This document shows positions 5,982-61,601 of a stretch of DNA of 64,000 nt, piece after piece. Under the pieces are notes generated by a model, which saw only the letters and a list, made by a program, of their open reading frames with translations, did no database searches and had not been told where the DNA came from. Made by a program: the position numbers and the translations under genes. The stretch covers positions 12,946-76,945 of the forward strand of contig CAZIUK010000003.1 of the NCBI GenBank assembly GCA_964542785.1. The letters run 5' to 3'. The DNA comes from an uncultured Planctomycetales bacterium (GTDB lineage: Bacteria; Omnitrophota; Gorgyraeia; Gygaellales; Profunditerraquicolaceae). Each line of letters starts with the position of its first letter. The stretch's first letter is position 1.

Positions 5982-5982
5982 G

Positions 5983-9336: not shown

Positions 9337-9348
9337 GGTAATAGTACA

Positions 9349-30415: not shown

Positions 30416-30417
30416 TT

Positions 30418-31077
30418 ATGGATAAACAGAGCTCTGACGAAAGACTCCTTAAGCTTATAGAAGGTCAATATAATACCACTACCTTAAAAGGACAGCAAAT
30501 CCCATTTCCCAAAGGACAGAAGCCCGCTATAGAGAAAATAGAGAGAAAATTTAACCTCAATAAATTATTATCTCAAATTAAGGAGCTAAAAATTGATTTA
30601 GTTTATATTAACAAAGGATTAATTTTAGCAGCTGTTTTTTTAGTTTTAGTTTTTTTATTTACTATCTTTACTCCTCCTGGGACTTCTCTTTTAAGCCTTG
30701 AGACTTTTAATAACGCTAGCTCTCGGCAGATAGAGCAGCTAATTAATATGGGGCAAAAGCAGGCGAGTTTGCGTAAATCTGCCTCCTTTAAGGATATAAA
30801 AAGGAATATATTTCTTCCTTTTAGCGCTCCTCAGGGTTTATTAAACCTACAGCAAGCTACAGAATTATCGGAAGAGATAAAAGCGTTAAAATTGGTGGGT
30901 ATTATTTGGTCGGCTGATCCTGAGGTTATGATTGAGAATGCAAAAGACACAAGGACTTATATACTTAAAAAAGGAGATACTTTTAATGAATCTTATAAGG
31001 TAAAAAATATAACACGCAATTCAGTAACCTTGCAGGTATCTACCCAAGATGGCCTAAAGGATTATGAGCTAAGATGA
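30418..31077 (+). CDS. Bitopic membrane protein with a GspB/GspC-HR/PilP-like C-terminal domain
   Basis: 219 aa with a central TM segment (LILAAVFLVLVFLFTIF). The C-terminus is LKLVGIIWSADPEVMIENAKDTRTYILKKGDTF..YKVKNITRNSVTLQ. Confidence 0.5.
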   Translation: MDKQSSDERLLKLIEGQYNTTTLKGQQIPFPKGQKPAIEKIERKFNLNKLLSQIKELKIDLVYINKGLILAAVFLVLVFLFTIFTPPGTSLLSLETFNNASSRQIEQLINMGQKQASLRKSASFKDIKRNIFLPFSAPQGLLNLQQATELSEEIKALKLVGIIWSADPEVMIENAKDTRTYILKKGDTFNESYKVKNITRNSVTLQVSTQDGLKDYELR

Positions 31078-32609: not shown

Positions 32610-32628
32610 TATTATAAATGGTATAAAA

Positions 32629-32665
32629 GGGGACAGCGACTTTTTTATCAAAAAGTCGCTGTCCC
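32629..32665. repeat. REP-like inverted pair (hairpin) between the two secretin genes
   Basis: GGGGACAGCGACTTTTT-tatc-AAAAAGTCGCTGTCCC forms a perfect 16-bp stem. Confidence 0.95.
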
Positions 32666-32670
32666 TATTT

Positions 32671-36644: not shown

Positions 36645-36656
36645 GGAGAAGGGAAA

Positions 36657-36670
36657 GGGGGACAGCGACT
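36657..36670 (+). repeat. Solo REP-like half-site
   Basis: GGGGACAGCGACT. Confidence 0.85.
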
Positions 36671-36791
36671 ATTTATAAGAGTAATATTTATAATAAAATA
36701 GAGTAGTTTTACGATTGTTATTTTAGGATAAATATAATATACTTAAGGTACAGGTTAAAAATAAAAAATGGCAGGTATAATGAAAATAATA

Positions 36792-36815
36792 AACAATAAC
36801 AATAACAATAACAAC
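36792..36815 (+). repeat. Hexanucleotide microsatellite (AACAAT)x3 + AACAAC
   Basis: Read directly from the sequence. It lies in the 5' leader of the DUF2341-like gene and produces the poly-Asn in the spurious ORF extension. Confidence 0.9.
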
Positions 36816-36818
36816 AAA

Positions 36819-36872
36819 GGGGACAGCGACTATTACTATTTTTGCGCTATGATAAAAAAAGTCGCTGTCCCC
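36819..36872. repeat. REP-like inverted pair with a 30-nt spacer, overlapping the start codon of the next gene
   Basis: GGGGACAGCGAC (36819-36830) pairs with GTCGCTGTCCCC (36861-36872). The ATG at 36849 lies inside the spacer. Confidence 0.9.
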
Positions 36873-39338
36873 ATTTTGGTTGCGTGTTTTTTTGTTGTCG
36901 CAGCGCAGGCAGAGGTCTTGGTAATTAAAGCTCCCTTAACTTGGGGGCTTGATAAATCCGCAGAATACCCTTTGCCAAAAGTATTAAACGGTATTTATAC
37001 AACTGACCAGTTTGTAGCTACTGAAGGACAAGTTAGCGCTATTACGATGAATTGGGAATCAAGGGGCGCTATATCAATGGAGGTAAGCGCTGATAATGGG
37101 CTGCATTATACTCCGGTAATAAATGGCGTTCCTTTAGAGAGCGGTTTTGTAAGTGGAGATAGGATTCGCTGGCGGGCACAAGCGCTAAATGAGGATGCGC
37201 AGTTAACAGCGGTGAATCTTTCTTATTCTGATACATCCGGAGTAATAGGGGATTTTGGCCAGCCACTTTTAAGCGGATTTATGTACCGTAAAGAATTTAT
37301 AGTGCGCAATGATTCTAGAGAAGATTTATACAATTATCAGATGAAGCTAAGAATAGGGGAAAGTGAATTAGCCAAGGATGCTGATATCTGCCTTTCTAAA
37401 AAAGCAAAAGAGGATTTTAGCGATATAAGAATTAGCGCATCTGATGGTAAGCGTATTTTATCCTATTATCTTGAAAGCATAGAAGGCGAGCTTCCAGGAA
37501 AGCGCAGTGCTGTAATTTGGGTTAATATTCCTCAACTGCCAAAAGAAAAAGATTTAAAGCTTTACCTATATTATGGGAATCCGCAGGCTTTAAGTTTATC
37601 AAGCGGCGAGCAGACGTTTGATTTTTTTGATGATTTTAAAGACCCTGCCAAGAGCAATGAGAAATGGATAACCTATACAGAAAAAAACGGTACCTTGCAA
37701 TTAAAAAATGGGGAAATTAAGCTTGATGCAGCCGAAGCCATTACAAAAGATTTTCTTTTTAAAGAAGGAATTGTTGAGTATCCCGTAGAGATTGAGAGCG
37801 GTTTTGAAAACAGTTTAAACTTGCGTGTCCAGAATGGTAACTCTTATGATATTCCGCTTTGGTCGGGTTATTCTTCTTTATACAAAGGTGCAGAGCATTG
37901 CATTGCTGTAGAGGGGACAGTAAGAAATAATGACACAACTGCTCTACCTTCTTTTGCCGGAAATAGGTATTACTACCGTTTTGAATATTTTAATGGTAAT
38001 ATAGTCTTTAGCCGTTTTGATGCTTTGACTAAAGAAAAGCAGGCAGAGGCAGTCTTTAAGTCTGATTCTTTGCAAAAAATAGGCTATCTGTCTTTGCGTT
38101 CCGGAGGTGACGGGAATGGCAAGAATGTTATTCGTTTTGGCGCTATACTTGTGCGTAAAGCTGCTTTAATCAAACCGTATTTTGTTTCAGCAGGAAAAGA
38201 AGAGCAACTCTCTTTGCCTATTTTTTCCGGTACAACTCTTTCTTCTTTTGGGAGCCTTACTTTGGCCAAAGGGGCAATGAGCGGGCATTATATTTCAAGT
38301 AATATCCGAAGCGAAGACCAGATAAGGATCATGATCCCTGACTGGGATATTGATTCTCTTGGAGGAGAGTTTATCTTACATCTTTCTGCTGATGCCGGCG
38401 GGTCATATAAGAAAGGCTGCGAAAAGGGGAAGTATTATTATGCTTCAAAAAAGGATTTTGTCCCCGGGAAAAACTTAAAGATACGCATTGACCTTTTAAA
38501 AGGGGCAGGCTCCGAAGTCGAAAAAGTCGCTGTCCCCTTTGTGAAGGTGGAGCATAGGGCAGGAAAGGTAAATATTATTTCACCTAATGGCAGAGAGGTC
38601 TGGGAGGTAGGAAGCAGTAAGAAGATTAGCTGGAGTGCCTTGGATTACGATGAAACTTATCTTTTTGATTTAGCTTACTCTGTCAATGGAGGAAAGGATT
38701 ATATTGAGATTATAGCCAATAAAGATAATGATGGAGTTTATACTTGGGTTGTCCCGGATAAAATTACTAAAATCGCAAAGATAAAGATATCTGATTCTTT
38801 GGATAAAGGTATTTATGATCTTTCCGATGCTTATTTTTCTATTGTAGCTAGAGAAGATTTAAGCATTCAGGAAGAGAAAAAAGAAGAAGCAGGGGTAGTA
38901 GTGCAGGCAGCGCTAAAAGATAAAGCCAGTAAAGAGAGCAAAGATAAGAAAGATAAAGTTACTAAAGAAAGCAAAAAGAAGAAAGATAAAGTTAGCAAAG
39001 AGAACAAAAAGTTGCCGGGGAAAAATCTTTATGATCTTTTAATTAAGATAGGCGATAGCAGGTCTTCCTACAGCGAGGGGGATATTGTTATCTTAAGGCC
39101 TTCAGGTTATATTTGGAGCGTTGAAGAGAGGGAGAAGTTTTTGATTGCGCAGGTATACCTAACTGAAAAGCAGGCTGAGGAATTAACCTCTCCTTTAAAA
39201 ACAAAGGATGGAGAGATATTAAGCCGCAGGAAATATAGGATTAACTTGCTTAAGCAGGGGCTTAAAGGTTTGACAGGGTCAATTAAAAGGCCAAAGGGCT
39301 CTTTTGAGGCAGGGGTTATTGAGGATAAGGCAAATTAG
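36849..39338 (+). CDS. Large secreted protein with a DUF2341-like domain, beta-sandwich modules and a Lys-rich segment
   Basis: The start is set at MIKKVAVPILVACFFVVAAQAEV (signal peptide). The DUF2341-like pattern is YRKEFIVRN...DFSDIRISASDGKRILSYYLES...AVIWVNIPQLP...LYLYYGNPQA. An IISPNGREVWEVGSSKKISW module is present. The K-rich repeat is KDKVTKESKKKKDKVSKENKK. Confidence 0.6.
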   Translation: MIKKVAVPILVACFFVVAAQAEVLVIKAPLTWGLDKSAEYPLPKVLNGIYTTDQFVATEGQVSAITMNWESRGAISMEVSADNGLHYTPVINGVPLESGFVSGDRIRWRAQALNEDAQLTAVNLSYSDTSGVIGDFGQPLLSGFMYRKEFIVRNDSREDLYNYQMKLRIGESELAKDADICLSKKAKEDFSDIRISASDGKRILSYYLESIEGELPGKRSAVIWVNIPQLPKEKDLKLYLYYGNPQALSLSSGEQTFDFFDDFKDPAKSNEKWITYTEKNGTLQLKNGEIKLDAAEAITKDFLFKEGIVEYPVEIESGFENSLNLRVQNGNSYDIPLWSGYSSLYKGAEHCIAVEGTVRNNDTTALPSFAGNRYYYRFEYFNGNIVFSRFDALTKEKQAEAVFKSDSLQKIGYLSLRSGGDGNGKNVIRFGAILVRKAALIKPYFVSAGKEEQLSLPIFSGTTLSSFGSLTLAKGAMSGHYISSNIRSEDQIRIMIPDWDIDSLGGEFILHLSADAGGSYKKGCEKGKYYYASKKDFVPGKNLKIRIDLLKGAGSEVEKVAVPFVKVEHRAGKVNIISPNGREVWEVGSSKKISWSALDYDETYLFDLAYSVNGGKDYIEIIANKDNDGVYTWVVPDKITKIAKIKISDSLDKGIYDLSDAYFSIVAREDLSIQEEKKEEAGVVVQAALKDKASKESKDKKDKVTKESKKKKDKVSKENKKLPGKNLYDLLIKIGDSRSSYSEGDIVILRPSGYIWSVEEREKFLIAQVYLTEKQAEELTSPLKTKDGEILSRRKYRINLLKQGLKGLTGSIKRPKGSFEAGVIEDKAN
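38521..38537 (-). repeat. REP-like half-site inside the coding sequence
   Basis: AAAAAGTCGCTGTCCCC is translated in frame as EKVAVPF. Confidence 0.85.
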
Positions 39339-44022: not shown

Positions 44023-47000
44023 ATGAAGAAAATACTCAAGGTATTATTAATAGGCGGGTTAGCGCTCTGGGGTTATTTTGAATCCGCATCCTTGGCTTTA
44101 GGAGCTAATCTTTCTATCTCAAGCGCGTCTGATCAGACCTTTATCTCTGAGGAAGCGCCTAAGGATGCGCAGGCTATAACCATTACTGATGTATCTGGAT
44201 CCGGCATAATCGTTTCAAGCGGGTTGAGGATACTTATCCCGGATTCTTTCGGGATGCAGTGGCATGGGGCTATGCTTAGGGATGATAGCGTGACTGATAC
44301 CTCTAACGCTGATTTTAGTGTTATTGCCGCGCAGATAATCTCTGCCGGGGTAACCTTGGAAAGTTCAGATGCCGGAGCAACCGGGAGCGTGGAGGTTAAT
44401 TTTACCAGTATAAACTCTATACCTGCTGATGCAAAGATAGTGATTACATTCCCGGATAATTTTGTTTTTAATTCTAAAAGCCCAACTCTTGCTTCTTCTG
44501 CCACAATGAGCGGGGATTTTAGTGTTAGTATTACTGGGCAGGTTATAACAGTTACCCGCAACTCAACTTCGGCTTCTTCTGCTGGAAGCCACTTAATTAC
44601 CTTAACTAATATTAAGAATCCGATTAGGCCGGGAACAACTGGGGCATATTCATTGAAGATCCAGACTCTGGCGGGGTTTGATATTGATGTGAATAATGAT
44701 TTAGCCGCTTCCACGATTGTCCCTGCGGCAACTTCCCGTATAACTTTAAATTCTCCGGATGATATGACTGCAGGCGCAGCGCGCGCAGCCTACACCTTAA
44801 CCCGTTATGATGAGTACGGTAATTTAAGTACACAAGAGGAAGAAGTCTTTGACATTTCAACTACCTCTACCGGGGATAATGCTGTTTTCTACAATGATGC
44901 TACTGCAAGCGAAGCCGGGAATATCATTACCAGTATCACTATCCCCCAGGGTTCTTCTTCGGTTAACTTCTGGTATGACGATACCAAGATGGGGGCGTAT
45001 ACAATTGCGGCTATTAAATCAGATCAGCCTGAGATTACCGTTTCTGATGGTATAAATGTAAAGCATGCTGAACCGGATCATTTAAGGTTTGTTTCTGATA
45101 TACCTACTGCGGATGCCAAGCAGGTCTCTGTGCAGTTTAACCTGCCTCAGCTTGCTGCTGTTGACCGTTATGATAATATACTTACTAATGACTACGGAGC
45201 TGCTGCTTATTCCGGGAATAAGGCTATAACCTATTCCTTAAGCGGTCAAAGAGACGCTCCCGACGGAAATGGGACAGATCTTTTTTATTCCGACAATGTA
45301 GCTTCGGCGAAGGTAAATTTTACTAACGGCCTCTCAACAAATGCCCTTAGCGCTAAGTTATACCGGGCGCAGAATACGGTTATATCCCCGGCGGATAGTA
45401 ATCTTCCCAGCGAGAGTCTTCCTTCTAACGAGATTATTGTTAACCCGGCTACAGCGACAAAACTGGTCTTTAAACAGCAGCCTTCTGGCAGTGCGATAGT
45501 CAACTCTGCCTTTTTACAACAGCCGGTAGTAGCTATCCAGGATCATTACGGCAACCAGACTTTGGATATATTCCCGATAAAGCTCTATGATTCTATCCGT
45601 TCGGAATTTCCTTATGCCGATGCTCCTGGAATTTTAACTTCTGACCACGAGGATAATACATTAAATGCCGTTGCAGGCGAGGCGTCTTTTAGCGGGGTTG
45701 AATATAATGCCTCAGGTGTAATATACCTGTATGCCCAAGGATTAGGCGCAGGCAGCAATGTTAACCCTGTTTTTTCAAATGAGATAACCCTGGCTACTTC
45801 CGTCACAACCATGGTTAAGGCCGCGGATACTCCTGTAGCTGACTTTAACCTAACTCCTACCAACGATACATTGGAAAAGAAGTTTAAGGTTTTAAAGTTT
45901 AAGGTAACTGATGCCGGAGAAGATAAGACTCCTACATTGATCGATCAGATTAAAATAGCAGTATCCGGCACCGGGGGTCATGCTTCTACAGATATTGCCT
46001 GGGCAGGTTTATATGTAGGAGAAGAAAAGGTGGCGGATGCTGCTTCTATAACAGATGACTTTATTACTTTTGGGCAGGAGCCTAACAGCGATTCTACTGC
46101 AGGTATCTACAGCGTGCCTGATAGTAGCTCTGTTGAATTTACCGTGTATATCCATATGAAGCCGGATAAGTTATCCGCCCTTGACGGCCAGTCGTATATC
46201 TTTACTACTGATGAAGATAGGGTAGGGGTTGACAGAGGGGCTTCTTCGCAAATGACGGCAAGCTCAGGCAGTATAGCCGCTGTTACCGGAACTATTAAAG
46301 TTGATATGACGCATCTTGAGATTGTAACTGAAGAAGGAGCCTCAACATTAACTGTCTCTGCTGGGGTGCCGGTAGAGCTGTTGGTGCGCGCTACCGACGC
46401 TAATAAGAACATAGATAGCGATTATAATGGTAGCCATACCTTAGTCTTCTCAGGGTTAAATAGTGTTGGTACCCTTTACCCAAAGATAGAGAGTGTCCTT
46501 TTTGGCTATAATATAACTATTTCTTTTTCAGGAGGTATTTCTGCTTCTCAAGGAGTTACCCTTACTCCTTATAAGAGCGAGGAAGGTATAATCGTTGTCC
46601 AGGAATCAGGAAAGTCTTACAGTCAGCATGGATTAACTGCCACGATTGTCCCTGCGGCGACTTCCCGTATAACTTTAAATTCTCCGGATGATATGACTGC
46701 AGGCGCAGCGCGCGCAGCCTACACCTTAACCCGTTATGATGAGTACGGTAATTTAAGTACACAAGAGGAAGAAGTCTTTGACATTTCAACTACCTCTACC
46801 GGGGATAATGCTGTTTTCTACAATGATGCTACTGCAAGCGAAGCCGGGAATATCATTACCAGTATCACTATCCCCCAGGGTTCTTCTTCGGTTAACTTCT
46901 GGTATGACGATACCAAGATGGGGGCGTATACAATTGCGGCTATTAAATCAGATCAGCCTGAGATTACCGTTTCTGATGGTATAAATGTAAAGCATGCTGA

Positions 47001-50000
47001 ACCGGATCATTTAAGGTTTGTTTCTGATATACCTACTGCGGATGCCAAGCAGGTCTCTGTGCAGTTTAACCTGCCTCAGCTTGCTGCTGTTGACCGTTAT
47101 GATAATATACTTACTAATGACTACGGAGCTGCTGCTTATTCCGGGAATAAGGCTATAACCTATTCCTTAAGCGGTCAAAGAGACGCTCCCGACGGAAATG
47201 GGACAGATCTTTTTTATTCCGACAATGTAGCTTCGGCGAAGGTAAATTTTACTAACGGCCTCTCAACAAATGCCCTTAGCGCTAAGTTATACCGGGCGCA
47301 GAATACGGTTATATCCCCGGCGGATAGTAATCTTCCCAGCGAGAGTCTTCCTTCTAACGAGATTATTGTTAACCCGGCTACAGCGACAAAACTGGTCTTT
47401 AAACAGCAGCCTTCTGGCAGTGCGATAGTCAACTCTGCCTTTTTACAACAGCCGGTAGTAGCTATCCAGGATCATTACGGCAACCAGACTTTGGATATAT
47501 TCCCGATAAAGCTCTATGATTCTATCCGTTCGGAATTTCCTTATGCCGATGCTCCTGGAATTTTAACTTCTGACCACGAGGATAATACATTAAATGCCGT
47601 TGCAGGCGAGGCGTCTTTTAGCGGGGTTGAATATAATGCCTCAGGTGTAATATACCTGTATGCCCAAGGATTAGGCGCAGGCAGCAATGTTAACCCTGTT
47701 TTTTCAAATGAGATAACCCTGGCTACTTCCGTCACAACCATGGTTAAGGCCGCGGATACTCCTGTAGCTGACTTTAACCTAACTCCTACCAACGATACAT
47801 TGGAAAAGAAGTTTAAGGTTTTAAAGTTTAAGGTAACTGATGCCGGAGAAGATAAGACTCCTACATTGATCGATCAGATTAAAATAGCAGTATCCGGCAC
47901 CGGGGGTCATGCTTCTACAGATATTGCCTGGGCAGGTTTATATGTAGGAGAAGAAAAGGTGGCGGATGCTGCTTCTATAACAGATGACTTTATTACTTTT
48001 GGGCAGGAGCCTAACAGCGATTCTACTGCAGGTATCTACAGCGTGCCTGATAGTAGCTCTGTTGAATTTACCGTGTATATCCATATGAAGCCGGATAAGT
48101 TATCCGCCCTTGACGGCCAGTCGTATATCTTTACTACTGATGAAGATAGGGTAGGGGTTGACAGAGGGGCTTCTTCGCAAATGACGGCAAGCTCAGGCAG
48201 TATAGCCGCTGTTACCGGAACTATTAAAGTTGATATGACGCATCTTGAGATTGTAACTGAAGAAGGAGCCTCAACATTAACTGTCTCTGCTGGGGTGCCG
48301 GTAGAGCTGTTGGTGCGCGCTACCGACGCTAATAAGAACATAGATAGCGATTATAATGGTAGCCATACCTTAGTCTTCTCAGGGTTAAATAGTGTTGGTA
48401 CCCTTTACCCAAAGATAGAGAGTGTCCTTTTTGGCTATAATATAACTATTTCTTTTTCAGGAGGTATTTCTGCTTCTCAAGGAGTTACCCTTACTCCTTA
48501 TAAGAGCGAGGAAGGTATAATCGTTGTCCAGGAATCAGGAAAGTCTTACAGTCAGCATGGATTAACTGCCACGATTAATGCGGGTGCTGCCAGTAATATT
48601 GCCCTATTAAGCGGCAATAACCAATCTGGAAAGATAGCCGCGCCTCTACTCCAGGCTTTTGTGGTGGCAGTTACCGATGTTTATGGTAATGGTATTGGAT
48701 CTGGGACCGGGGTTGATTTTGCTATTCTTAGCCAGCCTGAAGGTGCAACAGGAGCTTTATTAAGCACTATTTCTGGTGTAACTGATGCTAATGGCCATGC
48801 CTTTACAACCCTGACTGTAGGTAGCCTTGCTGGTGATTATCAGGTGACTGCTTCTTCAGCGGGGTTATCTGGTTCACCGGTAACTTTTATCGCTACGGGT
48901 TTACTCCCTAGTGCAATTCAGCTTTTAAGCGGAGATAACCAGTCTAAACAGGTAGTTTCTGCATTAGATGACCCTCTGGTAGTTAAAATAGTTGATTCAA
49001 CAGGTATTCCTATTCCTCGTGAGAAAGTGGATTTTACTATATCTTCTTATCCTGAAGGCGCGGTTGGGCAAGCGCTCTTGTCAGGCTCAGTGGTAACTGA
49101 TGATAACGGCCAGGCACAGACCAGCTTTACTTTAGGAGATAAGGCAGGGGTTTACAAGGTAACTGTTAATTGCGGTTCGCTTACTGCGGTTGATTTTAAT
49201 TTTAATGCTACTGCCAGGGCTCCTTATCAGGTAGCCTTAAGAGGTCCGGTTTCAGTCAAGGCAGGGGAGGTCTCTACCAAATTTACCGTCTCCATAGAGG
49301 ATGAATACAATAATCCTTCTAATTTATCCCAGGCAACTGTATTTTCATTAACCAATAATCCTTCTCGGCCAAGCGGAATATTTTATTCAAATAGCGACGG
49401 GACGTTAGCAATTAATTCTCTGACTGTAGCTAAGGGTACGAATAGCGCCAGTTTTTACTATAAGGATACAATAACTGGCATGGCGAATATTACGGCAACC
49501 CGTACTAGCGGGCAGTCTTTAATCCAGGGAATATCAAGCCAGGAAGTTACGGTTATCCCTTCGGATGCCTATCGTTTTACTATTGTTGGCAATACTGATA
49601 CTATAGAGACAGGGGAAAGTAAAGTATTGACCATAACCGCTTATGATAATTTAGGCAATGTAAAGAGCGATTATACCGGGAATGTTAATGTTCTCTTCTC
49701 TGGGGCTAGTGCTTCCCCAGCTCCTTCATCAAAGAAAGCCACAGCTTCTAACCATCTAAGTCAGGATATTGAATTTGGAAAGACTACCAGCCTAAACTTT
49801 ATTAATGGTGTAGCTGTTTCAACCTTGAAGTTTTATAAAGTAGAGGATGTGAATATAAAGATAACCAGCGGTTCAATAGTTACTGCTGAAGAGGATAGTC
49901 TAAGCTTTACCGTCAGGCATGGTCAGGCAGATCACTTGAAATTCGGCGGGAATCTTCCTGCTTTGCAGGAGGCGGGGGTAGAGTTTGATTTTGAAACTAC

Positions 50001-53000
50001 GCTGCAAGCGGTTGACCTTTATGATAATATCTGCAACGGCCTTAATGGTTCTTCCGGATTCTCTGGTTCAAAGAAGGTTACCTGGAGTTTAAGCGGAGCT
50101 TCTGATGGACCTGAGGGGAATGTTATTGATGAGTTTGTCAGTCCTGTAGAGTTTAGCTTAGGGGTATCCACTACTACTTTAAGCGCAAAGCTCTACCGTG
50201 CACAGGATACCACCATTACCGCTGCTATTTCTGCTTTAATAGGGGTAAATGTTGCTTCGAATACAATTACAGTTGAGCCTGGGGCAGTAGCAAAGCTAAG
50301 GTTCTCTCAGGAGCCTGCGGCTTCTTCCATTACCAGTCAGGCTTTAGAGGTACAGCCTAAGGTTGCGGTAAGTGATCAGTATGGTAACCCTGTTTCTACT
50401 ACCTCGGCTAACGTAAGCATTGCTGCTTCAACTAGCAATGATTCATTTGTACCTGTGGTTAATGGAGTATTAAGCGCTATTGGAGGACTTACAGCATCTA
50501 CAGTTAACGGAGTAGCTTCTTTTAGCGGAGTAACCTATAATTATCCTGAGACTATTTACCTTCGCGCCACAGTCGCAGGGGTAAGCCTGGTGCCGGTATT
50601 CTCTTCAGGTATAACATTTAGTACCGCTCAGGAAACAGCTCTCTCTGTTACTACACCAGGGCCTACTGCTATTTCTTCTCTTGCCTATACTACTGCAGAC
50701 AGAGTTGGGGTGCTTAATTTTAGGGTTGTTGATGGGGGGACTGATGGTTTCTCCAGTAAGATACGCCAGGTGATTGTAAAGCGCAACACCTCTGATACTA
50801 CCGGCGGGTGGACAAATTACCTGCAGGGAGTCTATATTACCGATGGAGCAACGCAGGTGGTTGGGAGGATAGAGGATGATCAGATTATTTTTGGCTTGGG
50901 GGGAAATGATATTTATGATGTTACTAACGGCACGACTAAGAATTTTACTGTGAGCGTATTTTTGAAGAATCCGCTCCCCTTAGATTCAGATAATAAGGTT
51001 TTGGGTTTCAAGCTTGATCCGGCTACAGATATAGTATTTGGTTCACCTAGCTCTAGGCTTGTCTCTTCTTCTGTGATGAGTTCAACTCCAAAGATCTCGG
51101 TTGTGGCTACTGATTTTGCTATTTTTGGCTCTCCTACCATGAATGCCGGAGATACCCAGCCGATTACGCTTAAGGCCGTAGATATACTGGGCAATATTGA
51201 TAAGGATTATGTTGGAGAAAAAACTTTAGTTTTTAGCGGACCAAGTATAACGAGTAAAGGAAATGAGCCCATCGAGACGACCTCAAATATTCCTTTTGGT
51301 ACGGATACCCCGGTTTCTTTTACCAACGGCCAGAGCTCATCTACCGTCGGGATTAAACTCTTTAAAGCCGAAACTGCTTATGTTAAGGCAGCCGATATTT
51401 CTGCGGGGATAACTACTCCTAATCAGAAAGCCTTGATTGTTACGGTTTACGGCGGAGCTGCCACGGGTTTAAGTTGGCTTACCCAGCCGGTGGGCGTAGT
51501 TGTCGAAAATGCCCCGTGGAAAGAGTTTAGTATTTCAGTTACCGATGCTTATGGCAATACCTCATCCAGCAGTACTGAGGTAACCGTAGCTCCTTCTAAC
51601 GGCAGTATCTCTACAGGTTCGCAGGCAACAGTTACCGCTCAATCGGGAATAGCCACATTCTATAATTTTGCGGTAAATGGTCTTAATGATGAAGAGAAGA
51701 TCACTTTAAGCGCATCAGCAAGCGGGGTAGCCGGTACCGGTCCTTCCAATGAAGTGCAGGTATTTAAGGTTTATAAGGTAACGGTCTTTGTAAAAGATTA
51801 TACTAGCGCTAGTAATCTTACTGAATGCGCTTTGGATGCCACATCTAACGGAGTAGTCGTAGATGGTTTTCCAAAGACAGGCAACAGCCCGTTTACTTTT
51901 AACTTGCCCTACGGGACGTATACCTTCCGGGTCTCTAAGGAAAAATATGTTGATGAAAACACCGAAAAGACAGCTGGTGTTGCCGCGGATTACCTGGACG
52001 GAGTATATGATGCAAAGATTACCTGGTCTTTGACTGCTACAAGTTTAGTTGAGGCTACTGCTGATTATAAAGCACAGAGCGCTTTTGTTTATGATGAAAG
52101 TACTGACAAGCTTTCTATCCGCGTCTGGCTGGAGAAGCGCGGGAAGATGGTAGTTAATGATGATGTTAATATTTTAGGTAATGCGGTTGTAGATATCTAT
52201 AATGATTCTACCGGGGGATGGCTTAAGTCAATTACCTTAGAGCCTCCTGCTGCGTCTAATACTGTAAATGGAGTTTATTTTAAGGAGATACCTAATGTAG
52301 TTTCTGTTGACGATGATTTTAACCTTGTTGCAGGCAAGACCTATTTTGCCCGTGTTGTCATTAATTATGGTGGGCTTACTGGTACAGGCAGAAGTTATGA
52401 AGGAGGAGCGACCTTTAGTGTTACTATAAACGAGAATCTGCGCGCAGTTACTAATTCTATTCAGACGGTTGCTACTAATATCGCCGGGCAGACTGCGGCA
52501 ATTCAAAAGACGATAAAGGATGAGATAGAAGGCCAGATTACTAGTGTTGTTGTGCCTAAGATTACTGATGTAAAGACTGAGACATCTAAGATTCTTTCTG
52601 CCACAGGCACAGAGTCTTTGCAGGATAAGATTGCCGAGGTAAAAACACAGGTAGTCCAGGAGGTTCAGCCGCATATTAAATCCGGTATATTAAATGGAGA
52701 GACTGCGGTAAGAACTGGCTCTAAACTAGCTGTTCGTTATCGAACTGATTCTGGACTTTCTCCAACGATATCCGTATATAGCCCCAAGAACAATCTTCTT
52801 ATCTCCGACAGGGCTATGGCAGAGATAGGGATAACGGGAATCTATGAGTATAATGTAACATTTTTACCGGCTTGGGGGAGGGGATCCTTTACTATTGTTT
52901 GTTCAGAGCCGGTAAAAGGAACAGCTGATGCCTTTGTGCTTAAGGTAAGTGATTCGGATATAGAGGATATATCAAGTAGTGTCTCTGCTGTTTTAGGTAG

Positions 53001-53370
53001 CACCTCTGGCATTACCAACCTTAAGAAAGTAACCGAAACCTTAAACGCGCAGTTTAGTGATATGGATAAGGCTATTGCCCAAATCAGCAAGAATATTACT
53101 GGAAAGGTTGAAGAGGTAAAAGGGGCTGCCGTTGAACTTGCCGGCGTATTTAAGCAGCTTGAGGATATGAGTAATACCATTAAGAGCTTAGGAGGGACAG
53201 CCGGTATAAATATTGATAAGATTTACGAGGTATCTAAAGATAAGCAGGAGGATATTAGTTATATTAAGAATAAGAGCGAAGAGCTTAAGGCGGCGATGGA
53301 GCTTAACCAAAAGATGATAGAGAATGTTGCTAAGAAGCCAGTAGTTCAAACCTGGTTTGAATTCAAGTAA
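44023..53370 (+). CDS. Giant (3115 aa) secreted surface protein with Big/Ig-like repeats and a coiled-coil-like C-terminus
   Basis: It has a signal peptide. Invasin/intimin-type Big-like units are visible (LLSGNNQSGKIAAPLLQAFVVAVTDVYGNG...DYQVTASSAGLSGSPVTF). A 643-aa module occurs twice almost identically, and a diverged third copy lies at about 49.5-51.5 kb. A carboxypeptidase-regulatory-like segment is also present (YKVTVFVKD...GTYTFRVSKEKY). Confidence 0.75.
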   Translation: MKKILKVLLIGGLALWGYFESASLALGANLSISSASDQTFISEEAPKDAQAITITDVSGSGIIVSSGLRILIPDSFGMQWHGAMLRDDSVTDTSNADFSVIAAQIISAGVTLESSDAGATGSVEVNFTSINSIPADAKIVITFPDNFVFNSKSPTLASSATMSGDFSVSITGQVITVTRNSTSASSAGSHLITLTNIKNPIRPGTTGAYSLKIQTLAGFDIDVNNDLAASTIVPAATSRITLNSPDDMTAGAARAAYTLTRYDEYGNLSTQEEEVFDISTTSTGDNAVFYNDATASEAGNIITSITIPQGSSSVNFWYDDTKMGAYTIAAIKSDQPEITVSDGINVKHAEPDHLRFVSDIPTADAKQVSVQFNLPQLAAVDRYDNILTNDYGAAAYSGNKAITYSLSGQRDAPDGNGTDLFYSDNVASAKVNFTNGLSTNALSAKLYRAQNTVISPADSNLPSESLPSNEIIVNPATATKLVFKQQPSGSAIVNSAFLQQPVVAIQDHYGNQTLDIFPIKLYDSIRSEFPYADAPGILTSDHEDNTLNAVAGEASFSGVEYNASGVIYLYAQGLGAGSNVNPVFSNEITLATSVTTMVKAADTPVADFNLTPTNDTLEKKFKVLKFKVTDAGEDKTPTLIDQIKIAVSGTGGHASTDIAWAGLYVGEEKVADAASITDDFITFGQEPNSDSTAGIYSVPDSSSVEFTVYIHMKPDKLSALDGQSYIFTTDEDRVGVDRGASSQMTASSGSIAAVTGTIKVDMTHLEIVTEEGASTLTVSAGVPVELLVRATDANKNIDSDYNGSHTLVFSGLNSVGTLYPKIESVLFGYNITISFSGGISASQGVTLTPYKSEEGIIVVQESGKSYSQHGLTATIVPAATSRITLNSPDDMTAGAARAAYTLTRYDEYGNLSTQEEEVFDISTTSTGDNAVFYNDATASEAGNIITSITIPQGSSSVNFWYDDTKMGAYTIAAIKSDQPEITVSDGINVKHAEPDHLRFVSDIPTADAKQVSVQFNLPQLAAVDRYDNILTNDYGAAAYSGNKAITYSLSGQRDAPDGNGTDLFYSDNVASAKVNFTNGLSTNALSAKLYRAQNTVISPADSNLPSESLPSNEIIVNPATATKLVFKQQPSGSAIVNSAFLQQPVVAIQDHYGNQTLDIFPIKLYDSIRSEFPYADAPGILTSDHEDNTLNAVAGEASFSGVEYNASGVIYLYAQGLGAGSNVNPVFSNEITLATSVTTMVKAADTPVADFNLTPTNDTLEKKFKVLKFKVTDAGEDKTPTLIDQIKIAVSGTGGHASTDIAWAGLYVGEEKVADAASITDDFITFGQEPNSDSTAGIYSVPDSSSVEFTVYIHMKPDKLSALDGQSYIFTTDEDRVGVDRGASSQMTASSGSIAAVTGTIKVDMTHLEIVTEEGASTLTVSAGVPVELLVRATDANKNIDSDYNGSHTLVFSGLNSVGTLYPKIESVLFGYNITISFSGGISASQGVTLTPYKSEEGIIVVQESGKSYSQHGLTATINAGAASNIALLSGNNQSGKIAAPLLQAFVVAVTDVYGNGIGSGTGVDFAILSQPEGATGALLSTISGVTDANGHAFTTLTVGSLAGDYQVTASSAGLSGSPVTFIATGLLPSAIQLLSGDNQSKQVVSALDDPLVVKIVDSTGIPIPREKVDFTISSYPEGAVGQALLSGSVVTDDNGQAQTSFTLGDKAGVYKVTVNCGSLTAVDFNFNATARAPYQVALRGPVSVKAGEVSTKFTVSIEDEYNNPSNLSQATVFSLTNNPSRPSGIFYSNSDGTLAINSLTVAKGTNSASFYYKDTITGMANITATRTSGQSLIQGISSQEVTVIPSDAYRFTIVGNTDTIETGESKVLTITAYDNLGNVKSDYTGNVNVLFSGASASPAPSSKKATASNHLSQDIEFGKTTSLNFINGVAVSTLKFYKVEDVNIKITSGSIVTAEEDSLSFTVRHGQADHLKFGGNLPALQEAGVEFDFETTLQAVDLYDNICNGLNGSSGFSGSKKVTWSLSGASDGPEGNVIDEFVSPVEFSLGVSTTTLSAKLYRAQDTTITAAISALIGVNVASNTITVEPGAVAKLRFSQEPAASSITSQALEVQPKVAVSDQYGNPVSTTSANVSIAASTSNDSFVPVVNGVLSAIGGLTASTVNGVASFSGVTYNYPETIYLRATVAGVSLVPVFSSGITFSTAQETALSVTTPGPTAISSLAYTTADRVGVLNFRVVDGGTDGFSSKIRQVIVKRNTSDTTGGWTNYLQGVYITDGATQVVGRIEDDQIIFGLGGNDIYDVTNGTTKNFTVSVFLKNPLPLDSDNKVLGFKLDPATDIVFGSPSSRLVSSSVMSSTPKISVVATDFAIFGSPTMNAGDTQPITLKAVDILGNIDKDYVGEKTLVFSGPSITSKGNEPIETTSNIPFGTDTPVSFTNGQSSSTVGIKLFKAETAYVKAADISAGITTPNQKALIVTVYGGAATGLSWLTQPVGVVVENAPWKEFSISVTDAYGNTSSSSTEVTVAPSNGSISTGSQATVTAQSGIATFYNFAVNGLNDEEKITLSASASGVAGTGPSNEVQVFKVYKVTVFVKDYTSASNLTECALDATSNGVVVDGFPKTGNSPFTFNLPYGTYTFRVSKEKYVDENTEKTAGVAADYLDGVYDAKITWSLTATSLVEATADYKAQSAFVYDESTDKLSIRVWLEKRGKMVVNDDVNILGNAVVDIYNDSTGGWLKSITLEPPAASNTVNGVYFKEIPNVVSVDDDFNLVAGKTYFARVVINYGGLTGTGRSYEGGATFSVTINENLRAVTNSIQTVATNIAGQTAAIQKTIKDEIEGQITSVVVPKITDVKTETSKILSATGTESLQDKIAEVKTQVVQEVQPHIKSGILNGETAVRTGSKLAVRYRTDSGLSPTISVYSPKNNLLISDRAMAEIGITGIYEYNVTFLPAWGRGSFTIVCSEPVKGTADAFVLKVSDSDIEDISSSVSAVLGSTSGITNLKKVTETLNAQFSDMDKAIAQISKNITGKVEEVKGAAVELAGVFKQLEDMSNTIKSLGGTAGINIDKIYEVSKDKQEDISYIKNKSEELKAAMELNQKMIENVAKKPVVQTWFEFK
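44711..48576 (+). repeat. Near-perfect in-frame tandem duplication, 2 x 1929 bp
   Basis: Copy 1 spans 44711-46639 and copy 2 spans 46640-48568. The shared 8-mer CCACGATT sits at all three boundaries (44711, 46640, 48569). I found one mismatch (A44730 versus G46659, synonymous). The translated copies are identical. Confidence 0.95.
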
Positions 53371-53390
53371 AAATAATGATAATGGATAAT

Positions 53391-53449
53391 GGGGACAGCG
53401 ACTTTTTTGATAAAAAGTCGCTGTCCCCCTAGAAAAAGTCGCTGTCCCC
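53391..53449. repeat. REP-like cluster (one forward and two reverse copies) after the giant gene
   Basis: GGGGACAGCGACTTTTT-tgat-AAAAAGTCGCTGTCCCC forms a 17-bp stem. A second AAAAAGTCGCTGTCCCC follows at 53433-53449. Confidence 0.95.
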
Positions 53450-53495
53450 TTTAAAAGGGTGACATATTTGAAAAATATGGTAAAATAAAATCAAG

Positions 53496-55075: not shown

Positions 55076-55711
55076 GGGGACAGCGACTTTTTGACTTTTT
55101 ATTTTTAGCTCTTTGATAATTTTTACTTAAATTTTTAAGTTAGATTTCCTTCCTTGCCGCGTCTATTGATAGTGAAGGTGATAGATGATATAGGGCCTAA
55201 AAGGAAGGGGTGGTATGGGGAGAATAGCCAGAATAGTAGGAGTAGGGTTGCCGCACCATATTACACAGAGAAGGAATTACCAATAATGTTGCTCATATGC
55301 GTTATTCGCAGTATTTTAATAATAAATTAAACCAGCGAGGGCATCTTTGGCAGGGAAGATTTTATTCTTGTATTTTGTCGCAAGCGCACCTTATGCTTGC
55401 TGCTTGCTATATAGAGCGTAATCCTGTACGCGCGGGTTTAGTAGATCAGCCATGGCATTGGCAATGGTCAAGTGCTGCCAGCCATACAAACCGTAAGATT
55501 GATGAGTTGGTTAATTCTGATGAGTTGTTAAAGCTTGTAGGTATGTCAAGCTCTTCTTGGGAGAAATATATAGAAACAAAGGAAGAAGAGAGTTTTTTGC
55601 AGGATATAAGGAAACATACTTTTACCAGTCGTTCTTTTGGCGTGGTTTAGGTTATTTTAAGGAGCAGGTCTAAGAAGGATAGGGTTGGGTTAAAAAAAAG
55701 TCGCTGTCCCC
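55076..55711 (+). mobile_element. Decayed REPtron: RAYT pseudogene bracketed by inverted REP-like half-sites
   Basis: GGGGACAGCGACTTTTT (55076-55092) and its exact reverse complement AAAAAGTCGCTGTCCCC (55695-55711) flank the RAYT remnant. Confidence 0.7.
55215..55650 (+). pseudogene. REP-associated tyrosine transposase (RAYT, IS200/Y1-like) with an internal deletion and frame break
   Basis: The N-terminal fragment MGRIARIVGVGLPHHITQRRNYQ* (55215-55286) resembles the RAYT N-terminus. The C-terminal fragment lies in another frame (55297-55650) and carries GHLWQGRFYS and YIERNPVRAGLV..WQWSS. The central segment of about 70 aa that normally carries the HUH motif (NHxHLL) is missing. Confidence 0.7.
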
Positions 55712-55735
55712 GTTTTAGTATGGAGGTTATTTAAG

Positions 55736-57060: not shown

Positions 57061-57774
57061 ATGTTGATTAACCTTTTGATTTTGCAAATTATTACCTTTA
57101 TAGGGGTTGTCTTACTTTTACGTTTTATATTTACCCGCCACTTAAAATCCGCGTTATCCAGGCTTAATGCCTTGCATGGGGAAAATTTATCTAAAGAAGA
57201 AGAGCTTAAGGAGGAGATCAGGCGTGTTAAGGAGCAAAGCGAAGCCTTTATTAAACAAAGCAGGGAAGAAGCAGAATTAATCATTGCTGAGGCTAATAAG
57301 AATGCTCAGAGAATTAGGATGAATATTGAGGAGCAGGCTAGAAATCAGGCAGAGAAGATCATCAGTGATTCTCGCATAGATAGCGAGAAAATTCAAAAGG
57401 AAGCACTTAAGAATATACAGGGACAGAGTATAGAGTTAGCCTTAAGGATGATTTCAGAATTGCTTACTGAAACAGATAAGGTAGCTTTGCAGTATGAGTT
57501 AGCCAACGGTATTATTGAAGAGATCTCCCGATTGCCTAAAGAACAGTTTAGTGTTCCCGGGGGGGAAGTCAACATTACTTCCAGCTTTCCGCTGTTAGAA
57601 AGGCAATGCAATAAAATAAAGAGTATTCTTACAGATAAATCAGGTTCGCCTGTAAATTTAAATCAAAAGTTAGACCCGGAGATTATCGGCGGGCTTATAG
57701 TTGAAATGGGGGGCATGGTCATCGACGGGACATTAAGAAGCAGGCTACAGAGGGTTGCTGAGGGGTTTAAATAA
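57061..57774 (+). CDS. atpF: F-type ATPase subunit b fused to a delta (OSCP) C-terminal domain
   Basis: 237 aa with an N-terminal TM and a charged helix typical of subunit b. The C-terminus VNITSSFPL...LDPEIIGGLIVEMGGMVIDGTLRSRLQRV matches the delta C-terminal pattern. Confidence 0.65.
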   Translation: MLINLLILQIITFIGVVLLLRFIFTRHLKSALSRLNALHGENLSKEEELKEEIRRVKEQSEAFIKQSREEAELIIAEANKNAQRIRMNIEEQARNQAEKIISDSRIDSEKIQKEALKNIQGQSIELALRMISELLTETDKVALQYELANGIIEEISRLPKEQFSVPGGEVNITSSFPLLERQCNKIKSILTDKSGSPVNLNQKLDPEIIGGLIVEMGGMVIDGTLRSRLQRVAEGFK

Positions 57775-57778
57775 GCTT

Positions 57779-59251
57779 ATGGCTGTTGAGGCGTTAGATA
57801 TTAAAGAAGTAGGCAAGGTTGAGGAGCTTAAGCAGGGGATCGTTAAAATTAGTGGTTTGCCTAATTGCGCCTTTGGGGATGTTATAACTTTTGATAATTC
57901 ATCTTTTAGCATTGATAGTATGCTTAAGGGGATGATTATTGAGTTTGATTCTAAATACGCCTTTGGCATTGTTTTTGGGGATGAGCATAGCATAAAAGTA
58001 GGGGATATTGTTTCTAGCCGTAAACATTTATTAAGCGTACCGGTTGGAGATAGTTTTATAGGTAGGGTGGTAGATGCCTTAGGTAATCCTTTGGATGGTA
58101 AAGGTAAGATAGAGAAGGATGAAGATTATCCGGTTTTTCGGCAAGCTGCCGGGATAATGGAACGCGAACCCATTTCTCAGACTTTGCATACGGGTATTAA
58201 AATTATAGATATGTTGATTCCTTTAGGCAAGGGGCAACGTGAGCTTGTTGTTGGGGATAGGCAAATAGGCAAAACTTCTATTGCCTTGGATATGATAATA
58301 AATCAAAAAGGCAGAGATGTTATATGTATATATTGCTGGATTGGAGGCAGTATATCTGCCTTTAATAAGGTTATTCAGACTATAAAAGAGCACGGGTGCA
58401 TGGATTTTACTTTAGCTGTTTGTGCTTCTGCCGGGTCATCGGTTAGCGAACAGTATATTGCTCCTTATACTGCCGCGGCTTTAGGCGAGTATTTTATGTA
58501 TAAAGGCAAGGATGTGTTAGTAGTTTTTGATGATTTGACTAAGCATAGCTGGGTTTATAGGCAGATGTCTTTGTTACTGGAGCGTGCCCCTGGGAGAGAA
58601 GCTTACCCCGGAGATATATTCTTTCTTCACTCTCAATTAATGGAACGTGCTGGGAGGCTTAAAAAAGAATTTGGCGGAGGAACTATGACTTTTTTACCTT
58701 TGGCTGAAACACTGCAAGGAGATATTACAGGCTATATCTGTTCTAATATCGTTTCAATGACTGACGGGCAAATCTATTTAAATACTGGGTTATTCCAAGA
58801 AGGTTTTAAGCCAGCAATTGATTTAGAGTTATCTGTATCTCGTATTGGCAGTAAGGTACAGTCTCCGGCCATTAAGAAGTTAAGCGAAGGATTGCGTTAT
58901 GAATATGTACATTACCGTTCTTTGTTGAGATTGACGCGCCTGCGGACAAAATTAAGCCCCGAGGCTACGCAACAGATTCAGCGCGGTAGGGCGCTCTATG
59001 AATTGCTTATACAAGAAAATTTTTCTCCTGTTTCTCAAGCAGAAGAGATTGTTTCTTTTTACGCTTTTCAACAAAAAATCCTCGAGTCGATAAATTTGGA
59101 CGAGGTAAAATTGTTTAAGAAAAACTTTTTCCCTTATTTAAGTAAAAATAATCAAGATTTGGTGGATATTTTGAATGATAAAGGTGAACTTACAGAAGAA
59201 GTCAAGCAGCTTTTAGACAAGGCGATAAAAGGTTTTTTTGCGCTTTCATAA
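57779..59251 (+). CDS. atpA: F-type ATPase alpha subunit (divergent)
   Basis: Walker A is GDRQIGKTS. Also present are DDLTKHSWVYRQMSLLLERAPGREAYPGDIFFLHSQLMERA. The start is set at ATG 57779, just after the b-delta stop, whereas the ORF track starts at 57755. Confidence 0.85.
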   Translation: MAVEALDIKEVGKVEELKQGIVKISGLPNCAFGDVITFDNSSFSIDSMLKGMIIEFDSKYAFGIVFGDEHSIKVGDIVSSRKHLLSVPVGDSFIGRVVDALGNPLDGKGKIEKDEDYPVFRQAAGIMEREPISQTLHTGIKIIDMLIPLGKGQRELVVGDRQIGKTSIALDMIINQKGRDVICIYCWIGGSISAFNKVIQTIKEHGCMDFTLAVCASAGSSVSEQYIAPYTAAALGEYFMYKGKDVLVVFDDLTKHSWVYRQMSLLLERAPGREAYPGDIFFLHSQLMERAGRLKKEFGGGTMTFLPLAETLQGDITGYICSNIVSMTDGQIYLNTGLFQEGFKPAIDLELSVSRIGSKVQSPAIKKLSEGLRYEYVHYRSLLRLTRLRTKLSPEATQQIQRGRALYELLIQENFSPVSQAEEIVSFYAFQQKILESINLDEVKLFKKNFFPYLSKNNQDLVDILNDKGELTEEVKQLLDKAIKGFFALS

Positions 59252-59264
59252 ATGGGATAAATGA

Positions 59265-59337
59265 AATGGGGGACGAAATGGGGGACAGCGACTTTTTTCT
59301 AAAAAAAGTCGCTGTCCTCCCATAAAGTCGCTGTCCC
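59265..59337. repeat. REP-like cluster between atpA and atpG
   Basis: A partial head AATGGGGGAC is followed by GGGGACAGCGACTTTTTT (59281-59298). Reverse copies are AAAAAAAGTCGCTGTCC (59301-59317) and AAAGTCGCTGTCCC (59324-59337). Confidence 0.9.
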
Positions 59338-59349
59338 TCCCATTAAAAG

Positions 59350-60192
59350 ATGATACCGGTTGGGAAGCTAAAAGTAAACCTGCAGTTTAATAAGAACCTC
59401 GGCAATTTAGTTGAGGTGATGAAGTTGGCGGCGACCTCGCAGTTTAATCAATTTCGTTTAAAGGGGGAGCCGTCTTCTGAGTATGTAAAGCTGCTTGGTG
59501 ATTTCTTTGGAACCCTTTTAAGTATTGGTATTGGCAATGATTTATTAAGGCCCAGGGAGGGCCTGCCGTCTCTTTTAGTCTTAGTAAGTTCCGATGAAGG
59601 TTTTTTAGGAGAGCTTAACTTTCTTTTAGTTAATAGTCTTCTTAATACTTTAAGGCGAAATGATATCATTGCTTGTTCAGGAACCTTAGGGGCCAACTAT
59701 TTAAAAGAGGTCCAAATTGACTTTTCTTATTTTGATTCTCCTGGAGAAAAGCTTGATACAAAAGCCCTATCTTCCTTAAGGGATTATATATTAAACCTTT
59801 ATTTAAAGAAGAAGGTTGGCAGGGTTTATATAATTTACTCTAAGTTTATAAACATCGGCGCTCAACAGATTGAGGTAGAGACTATATTGCCTTTGTTTCA
59901 AGATTACCAGATGCAAAGAGTCCCCATTCAAAATTTTTTAATTGAGCCTAACCTTAAGTCGGTAATAGAAGGATGGGTTAAAAGCTGGCTGGATTTTCGC
60001 CTTTATCAAATTTTTTGGTTAAGCAAGCTCTCAGAGTTTGCCGCTAGGATTATGCATTTAGAGGGTAGTGTCCAAGAGTTAAAAAGGATAAATGGCCGCT
60101 TGAATATAGAGTATTTTAAATATTTACATGCCTTATCTGATAAATCGATTAGGGAGATTACTGCGGCGCGTTTAATTAATAAATATAGGTAA
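59350..60192 (+). CDS. atpG: F-type ATPase gamma subunit (divergent)
   Basis: 280 aa, positioned between alpha and beta. The N-terminus (NLGNLVEVMKLAATSQFNQF) and C-terminus (LSDKSIREITAARLI) resemble the terminal helices of gamma. Confidence 0.6.
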   Translation: MIPVGKLKVNLQFNKNLGNLVEVMKLAATSQFNQFRLKGEPSSEYVKLLGDFFGTLLSIGIGNDLLRPREGLPSLLVLVSSDEGFLGELNFLLVNSLLNTLRRNDIIACSGTLGANYLKEVQIDFSYFDSPGEKLDTKALSSLRDYILNLYLKKKVGRVYIIYSKFINIGAQQIEVETILPLFQDYQMQRVPIQNFLIEPNLKSVIEGWVKSWLDFRLYQIFWLSKLSEFAARIMHLEGSVQELKRINGRLNIEYFKYLHALSDKSIREITAARLINKYR

Positions 60193-61599
<1,407 letters not shown>

Positions 61600-61601
61600 A
61601 T

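Follow-up and report, generated by a model that had tools for sequence, protein, structure and literature searches.

What does a near-identical tandem repeat inside a surface-protein gene represent: a duplication caught shortly after it arose, or a product of assembly? The question is raised by a 64,000-nt window of an uncultured Omnitrophota genome (GCA_964542785.1, contig CAZIUK010000003.1, positions 12,946-76,945 of the forward strand; all coordinates given here are positions in this window). The window contains a gene, referred to here as the fibre gene, for a 3115-aa protein predicted to be secreted and to consist largely of immunoglobulin (Ig)-like domains. An earlier note on this DNA had described a 1929-bp repeat within the gene and proposed either a very recent duplication, implying a copy-number-variable adhesin, or an assembly artefact. 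Our analysis indicates that the repeat probably reflects a genuine and evolutionarily recent tandem duplication, in frame and specific to this lineage, of a five-domain module (module A) in a fibre gene that is conserved in the Omnitrophota.

We compared the two copies directly, base by base. Positions 44711-46647 are identical to positions 46640-48576 at an offset of 1929 nt, with the sole exception of A44730/G46659. The matched length of 1937 nt equals one 1929-nt unit plus 8 nt, and the unit is identical between copies at 1928 of 1929 positions (99.95%), which chance cannot account for. The mismatch falls on the last base of an Ala codon (GCA/GCG), and so the two units, when aligned by codon (aa 231-873 and aa 874-1516), have identical amino acid sequences. 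The alignment thus agreed with the earlier note on the exact offset, the single synonymous difference and the identical translations. Since 1929 is 3 × 643, the reading frame is kept and the open reading frame (ORF) 44023-53370 stays open. The synonymous divergence (dS) between the copies is 1/452 synonymous sites, or 0.0022, and 41% of the fibre coding sequence lies within the near-identical tandem.

The 8-mer CCACGATT was found on the + strand of the window at three sites only, 44711, 46640 and 48569. These correspond to the start of copy 1, the junction between the copies and the end of copy 2, exactly where the note had placed it. At the junction, copy 1 closes with ...GGATTAACTG and copy 2 opens with CCACGATTGTCCCTGCGGCG. 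The suggestion that microhomology flanks the duplication was also borne out: it amounts to 8 bp, and at least 8 bp of microhomology would be expected at a random duplication junction with P ~1.2e-4.

We then considered where the ends of the unit lie in the protein. An AlphaFold2 (AF2) model of module A was all-beta, with approximately five beta-sandwich domains and a mean predicted confidence (pLDDT) of 77; the module matched no Pfam or NCBIfam model. In the AF2 model, the unit opens at the first strand of a beta-sandwich (TIVPAATSRITL; T-I-V-P-A-A-T-S-R-I-T-L) and closes past the last strand of the fifth. The sequence to its right, T-I-N-A-G-A-A-S-N-I-A-L, belongs to the next Ig-like domain and carries the motif T-I-x-x-x-A-A-x-S, as does the start of the unit. 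As modelled, both ends of the unit fall in inter-domain linkers.

The duplication was next placed in the context of the protein family. Our census covered ~27 family proteins with both module A and its diverged paralogue A', together with 10 complete genome loci (blastp and hmmsearch). The proteins compared were the sister cluster P0002, P0026 and P0027; P0003-P0009; and 50%-identity cluster representatives from ~15 billion proteins. The sister cluster is 61% identical to the window protein. Every family protein with an intact core had one A, in almost every case followed ~330 aa later by one A', and the window protein alone had the order A-A-A'. The gene is complete at 10 genome loci, one of them on the closed chromosome of V. 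archaeovorus LiM (NZ_CP019384; the orthologue is locus L014), and at each of the 10 a single subject interval matched both query copies. In a full-length MAFFT alignment (A2), the orthologues aligned to copy 2, and copy 1 was an insertion relative to all of them. The core order of the family (orthologues P0002-P0009 and L001-L028) is A, two Big_1 domains, A', a PEGA-like domain and a coiled-coil C-terminus ending in ...P-x-x-x-x-W-x-E. Invariant columns were present in A2 across the core and the C-terminal end, and the window protein deviates from the core order by the extra A only.

Judged from these sequences, the A/A' split appears to be ancient and fixed across the phylum, and the A/A duplication appears to be confined to the terminal lineage. 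All orthologues and cluster representatives examined carry a single A, so that the event is specific to this lineage; it is probably recent, as the earlier note had supposed. The more diverged third copy that the note had reported at about 49.5-51.5 kb was also recovered, as module A' (aa 1843-2468). Its further claim, that the module had expanded before, holds in that A did give rise to A', but that step was ancient and phylum-wide and hence is no sign of ongoing expansion. At the DNA level, A and A' share no usable similarity (the longest exact run is 12 nt), and recombination between A' and A was rejected for that reason. The nearest genome, L001, has 82% nucleotide and 82% aa identity in the fibre gene. 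Its contig starts 326 nt before the end of the unit, a length that exceeds k-1 of its k127 assembly and hence does not point to a break induced by a repeat; because the contig starts inside A, L001 is uninformative on whether the duplication is shared at the genus level.

These observations are consistent with a simple route to the present gene. The ancestral allele would have had the form L-(CCACGATT-A)-(CCACGATT-R), with the two 8-mers 1929 nt apart and located at equivalent linkers (...S/A-T-I...) of two Ig-like domains. From this allele, L-A-A-R would have arisen when the 8-mers underwent template slippage or illegitimate exchange. Because the breakpoints appear to lie in inter-domain linkers and 1929 is divisible by 3, the product would be a folded protein, longer by approximately five beta-sandwich domains and probably tolerated. 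We estimate that this would add roughly 20 nm of reach if the domains were extended. Taken at face value, the dS of 0.0022 would make the event very young. Recent intragenic repeats elsewhere in the family (350 bp in L007 and 130 aa in P0008) also support this reading.

Bacterial tandem segment duplications form at short direct repeats and subsequently amplify or vanish via RecA-dependent unequal exchange. The fibre gene resembles such classical duplications in having an 8-bp direct repeat at both segment ends and at the junction, and kilobase-scale perfect homology afterwards. It differs from them in that the event was intragenic and precise with respect to domain boundaries. RecA-dependent unequal exchange can act on near-perfect direct repeats of 1.9 kb, and the array would therefore be expected to lack stability and to gain or lose units. 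If so, a population mixing one-, two- and three-copy alleles would be a reasonable prediction.

Two other explanations need to be weighed, although we regard it as highly likely that the duplication is real in some form, whether recent as assembled or older, homogenised or mis-counted. The same strain (99.9-100% nucleotide identity) was recognised in four JGI samples and two SRA runs (SRR12447094 and SRR12447105) through NadE and the 234-aa gene downstream of the fibre gene. Several observations weigh against a recent duplication as assembled. Same-strain JGI and Logan contigs were 1-4 kb long and lay elsewhere in the locus, and none reached the repeat. Look-ups by exact sequence of the fibre protein, of P0001 and of the 961-aa protein encoded upstream returned no record. 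Two scans of JGI metagenome contigs were empty as well: one used the opening 40 nt of the unit, with R at the variable base, and gave 0 matches, although this pattern would catch flank-to-unit and unit-to-unit contexts alike; the other used the module protein and gave 0 relatives. A short-read assembler that passed twice through a loop and merged the differences in its interior would be expected to leave such a pattern, a lone mismatch only 20 nt from the edge of the unit; both the count of two copies and the identity of 99.95% may accordingly be assembly minima or consensus values. Furthermore, in a preprint survey of Omnitrophota genes for proteins of at least 10,000 aa, strictly identical nucleotide tandems never reached 10% of the coding sequence (10.64898/2026.06.07.730766). 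Unlike the very long genes of that survey, which have no large identical nucleotide tandems, the fibre gene has a tandem over 41% of its coding sequence, which is atypical for the phylum.

If the repeat were an artefact, the genome would hold a single A and the second copy would come from the assembler, from scaffolding, from an unmerged contig overlap or from chimeric reads (template switching in amplification). Near-perfect identity with one difference is indeed the look of a duplicated consensus, the duplication was seen in no relative examined, and long Omnitrophota genes do not typically carry identical tandems this large. The fibre gene is also hard to assemble, because ~12 of 28 loci end inside it, so that orthologues are often break points of contigs in metagenome-assembled genomes (MAGs). 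However, joined contig overlaps have random ends, for which an 8-bp microhomology has a probability of ~1.2e-4, and only 1/3 of random lengths would also be divisible by 3; the position of both ends in predicted inter-domain linkers lowers the chance further. Moreover, 8 bp is far below assembler k-mers, and an edge from unit end to unit start in a de Bruijn graph would need reads that contain it. The A and G at unit position 20 are tied to two different upstream contexts, and the data therefore contain two distinguishable junction contexts. These points weakened the artefact explanation, which we consider unlikely.

The position of the single difference bears on the remaining explanation, in which the duplication is real but older and its copies have been homogenised by gene conversion, or in which more than two, or more divergent, copies were collapsed by short-read assembly. 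The chance that a sole difference falls within 20 nt of either end is only ~2%. Gene conversion tracts fail at repeat edges, and a short-read assembler phases only positions within k-mer reach of unique flank. Two copies are the minimum path covering a loop in an assembly graph, so that the true copy number could be higher, and differences beyond k-mer reach merge into the consensus, so that the true identity between copies could be lower. The exact dispersed repeats in L007 and P0008 suggest that intragenic conversion occurs in the family. Nevertheless, only one copy is present in the sister clade (61% identity) and in every more distant lineage compared, which would confine any older origin to the terminal lineage, and the sequence gave no evidence for more than two copies. 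An older or mis-counted array is thus improbable, to about the same degree as an artefact, and a recent duplication as assembled is the reading that we follow below.

If the duplication is recent, growth of a domain array would have been caught in the act, with a five-domain block copied cleanly at its linkers via an 8-bp microhomology. Throughout the phylum the protein otherwise keeps a fixed core architecture, and the fibre would become a candidate length-variable surface structure in a locus proposed for host-cell attachment. The "copy-number-variable adhesin" of the earlier note is plausible in this respect; we hypothesise an adhesin role for the protein from its fold and genomic context. 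A stronger proposal is that the fibre is a length-adjustable host-contact structure whose reach is switched within the population by recombination between near-identical five-domain supermodules. We regard this as doubtful; if true, it would bring the periscope principle, at supermodule scale, to an ultra-small bacterium of a phylum proposed to be largely host-dependent. The wider significance is limited, as recent tandem duplications in repetitive surface-protein genes are already well known. The event is of a known, ordinary kind, and this genome is its only carrier among the relatives compared. For users of this MAG, the length of the fibre gene, the copy number and the identity between copies should be distrusted until reads have been mapped.

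The closest known parallel is that of the periscope proteins, in which high DNA identity between adjacent repeats has been linked to intragenic recombination and to repeat numbers that change rapidly (Whelan et al. 2021, PMC8201768). We compared the fibre with SasG/Aap, Rib/alpha-C, the SHIRT domains of Sgo_0707, CdrA and Esp. Like these, it is predicted to be a secreted, elongated beta-sandwich array with adjacent repeats that are near-identical in DNA, and highly identical tandem repeats encoding (predicted) folded domains are present in the minimal case of two copies. In contrast to the periscope proteins, what is repeated here is a supermodule (643 aa) made up of five different domains rather than a single domain of ~80-130 aa, and orthologues in other species are uniformly single-copy. 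The fibre further differs in belonging to an uncultured bacterium of the Omnitrophota, and domain scans identified no defined tip-binding domain or wall or membrane anchor in it.

Giant genes of the Omnitrophota have been proposed to lengthen through domain duplication (Seymour et al. 2023, PMC10066038; West-Roberts et al. 2023, 10.1101/2023.11.21.568195; preprint 10.64898/2026.06.07.730766). The fibre gene shares with them the phylum, a large predicted surface protein and few annotated domains. Unlike them, it is far under the 20-kb or 10,000-aa thresholds at 3115 aa, and it represents a different, well-conserved family with a fixed core of A, two Big_1 domains, A' and a C-terminal region. 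The two Big_1 domains, which follow directly after copy 2, recall inverse autotransporters of the invasin/intimin type. That identity was rejected, since a whole-protein Pfam scan detected no N-terminal beta-barrel, LysM domain or C-type lectin tip. A giant RTX adhesin of a type I secretion system (LapA, SiiE or MpIBP) was likewise rejected: there was no RTX/HemolysinCabind match, the N-terminus is of the Sec type as predicted, and the neighbouring genes encode secretins and DUF2341, FGE-sulfatase-like, Big_7 and Peptidase_MA_2 proteins, where such an adhesin would have an ABC transporter, a membrane fusion protein and TolC.

The coordinates of the repeat, the remaining parts of the fibre gene and its neighbours are collected in the table.

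Table. Features of the repeat, the fibre gene and its surroundings (positions in the 64,000-nt window; single numbers are given as reported)
Feature	Position	Strand	Description or basis
Fibre gene	44023..53370	+	3115 aa, single ORF, secreted (predicted) multi-Ig-like protein; ORF, homologues, synteny
Signal-peptide-like N-terminus (MKKILKVLLIGGLALWGYFESASLALGAN)	44023..44109	+	basic n-region, hydrophobic core, A-L-G-A site; read from translation
Copy 1 of the 1929-nt unit (module A)	44711..46639	+	643 aa, ~5 beta-sandwich domains (modelled); offset comparison
CCACGATT at left boundary	44711..44718	+	codons tCC ACG ATT = S-T-I
Sole difference between copies	44730 (A) vs 46659 (G)	+	20th base of unit; synonymous, Ala GCA/GCG
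Copy 2 of the 1929-nt unit	46640..48568	+	matches copy 1 except G46659 vs A44730
CCACGATT at novel copy 1/copy 2 junction	46640..46647	+	gCC ACG ATT = A-T-I
CCACGATT at right boundary	48569..48576	+	opens next Big_1-type domain, A-T-I-N-A-G-A-A-S...
A-A' spacer	48577..49548	+	324 aa, two Big_1 (invasin/intimin-type) Ig-like domains; Pfam
Module A'	49549..51426 (aa 1843-2468)	+	ancient paralogue of A (from sequence), ~30% aa identity; protein comparison
Conserved C-terminal region	51748..53367	+	PEGA-like beta-sandwich, second beta-sandwich, long helix, third beta-sandwich, helical segments; end ...KKPVVQTWFEFK
Palindrome GGGGACAGCGACT...AGTCGCTGTCCCC	53388..53428	+	directly after fibre stop codon; repeat search, member of intergenic hairpin family
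ExeA/MshM-like ATPase	29591		
Secretin	31074		
Secretin with TPR	32572		
Two-component system	34490, 35968		
DUF2341 protein	36768		
FGE-sulfatase-like protein	39380		
Big_7 protein	41037		
234-aa protein	53496		
Peptidase_MA_2	54267		
GGDEF response regulator	55736		
F-type ATPase operon	57061-61599		
MshE/PilB-type ATPase	61602		

The fibre protein is identical to P0001 in NCBI, which is encoded on a 101,391-bp contig. Relatives are encoded at 28 genome loci, and homologues with a source name and related genome loci were mostly labelled Omnitrophota. The N-terminus looks like a Sec signal peptide when read from the translation. In the whole-protein Pfam/NCBIfam scan, only a weak PEGA match was obtained, and the Big_1 pair was scored in the spacer. 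Within the spacer, Big_1 reached 53 bits (cut-off 34.9) in two stretches, and Invasin_D3 scored 28.9 bits, below its cut-off of 33.

The C-terminal 540 aa were modelled by AF2 (pLDDT 63) as three beta-sandwiches, a long helix and further helices. PEGA scored 19.7 bits here, just below the cut-off of 20.8. The region is 91% identical to that of L001, compared with 82% for the whole gene. It closes with the family end motif ...P-V-V-Q-T-W-F-E-F-K, in which P3106, W3111 and E3113 are invariant in alignment A2. The tail of the family (53106-53367) has the consensus ...N-K-P-[VI]-V-x-[TS]-W-[FLY]-E-[FY]-K. Neither Pfam nor NCBIfam has a model that matches this tail, which might act as a signal for sorting, anchoring or partner binding. 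Pfam/NCBIfam scans of the fibre protein yielded no LPXTG motif, beta-barrel, transmembrane segment or known adhesive tip.

Single domains of module A were widespread in a profile search, with 5380 cluster representatives at E <= 1e-3 and 20-46 copies in some proteins. The most widespread part corresponds to profile positions ~232-350 and carries a QQP...D.YGN motif. As no Pfam family covers this domain, it may merit a family definition of its own.

Exact repeats were also seen in the variable N-terminal part of two other family members, in both cases non-tandem. The L007 orthologue has a 350-bp repeat (8105-8454 and 9197-9546) at a distance of 1092 nt (364 codons), and P0008 has a 130-aa repeat (aa 1116-1245 and 2049-2178) at a distance of 933 aa. 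These could have originated from intragenic gene conversion or be assembly chimeras. In V. archaeovorus LiM (L014), two FGE-sulfatase-like paralogues (1712-3261 and 5468-7032), 95% identical and 3.77 kb apart, lie upstream of the fibre orthologue. The species-representative contigs that end inside the fibre gene (~12 of 28) are those of L001, L002, L005, L006, L009, L012, L013, L018-L020 and L026-L028. Several end within module A, and no clustering at one position was evident.

The window has ~39% G+C and represents a segment of a bacterial chromosome in which all genes longer than ~200 aa are on the + strand. In a tblastn comparison of the 28 loci, synteny was conserved over the DUF2341, FGE-sulfatase-like, Big_7, fibre, 234-aa, Peptidase_MA_2 and GGDEF genes, and the same DUF2341-to-GGDEF order was present in the closed V. 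archaeovorus LiM genome. The fibre cluster is flanked by two secretin genes (29591-34611 stretch) on one side and by the F-type ATPase operon and the MshE/PilB-type ATPase (57061-63227) on the other. The adjacent secretin ORFs overlap by 38 nt, and the second contains TPR repeats. Co-located type 4a pilus and F-type ATPase loci in Omnitrophota have been associated with symbiosis (Seymour et al. 2023, PMC10066038), and by analogy the fibre locus resembles these.

The palindrome directly after the fibre stop codon was not listed by a simple terminator scan, but it likely marks the end of the transcript. The palindrome GGGGACAGCGACT-(T/A run)-AGTCGCTGTCCCC, with a 13-bp stem, or its half-sites recurred at 32626-32670, 36645-36674, 36806-36893, 38520-38549, 53388-53461, 55671-55732 and 59268-59343. 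Several copies lie just past stop codons, including those of the first secretin, the fibre gene and the ATPase alpha subunit. This looks like a family of repetitive extragenic palindromic (REP)-like or terminator hairpins.

Two further features were noted in the window. The ribonucleotide reductase large-subunit gene (19404-23003) contains an intein, which includes a homing-endonuclease domain of the LAGLIDADG type. The DUF2341 protein has a lysine-rich KDKxxKExK sequence close to its C-terminus, encoded by a tandem repeat (38916-39014) with a 33-bp unit that is in frame and present in ~3 copies with 84% matches.

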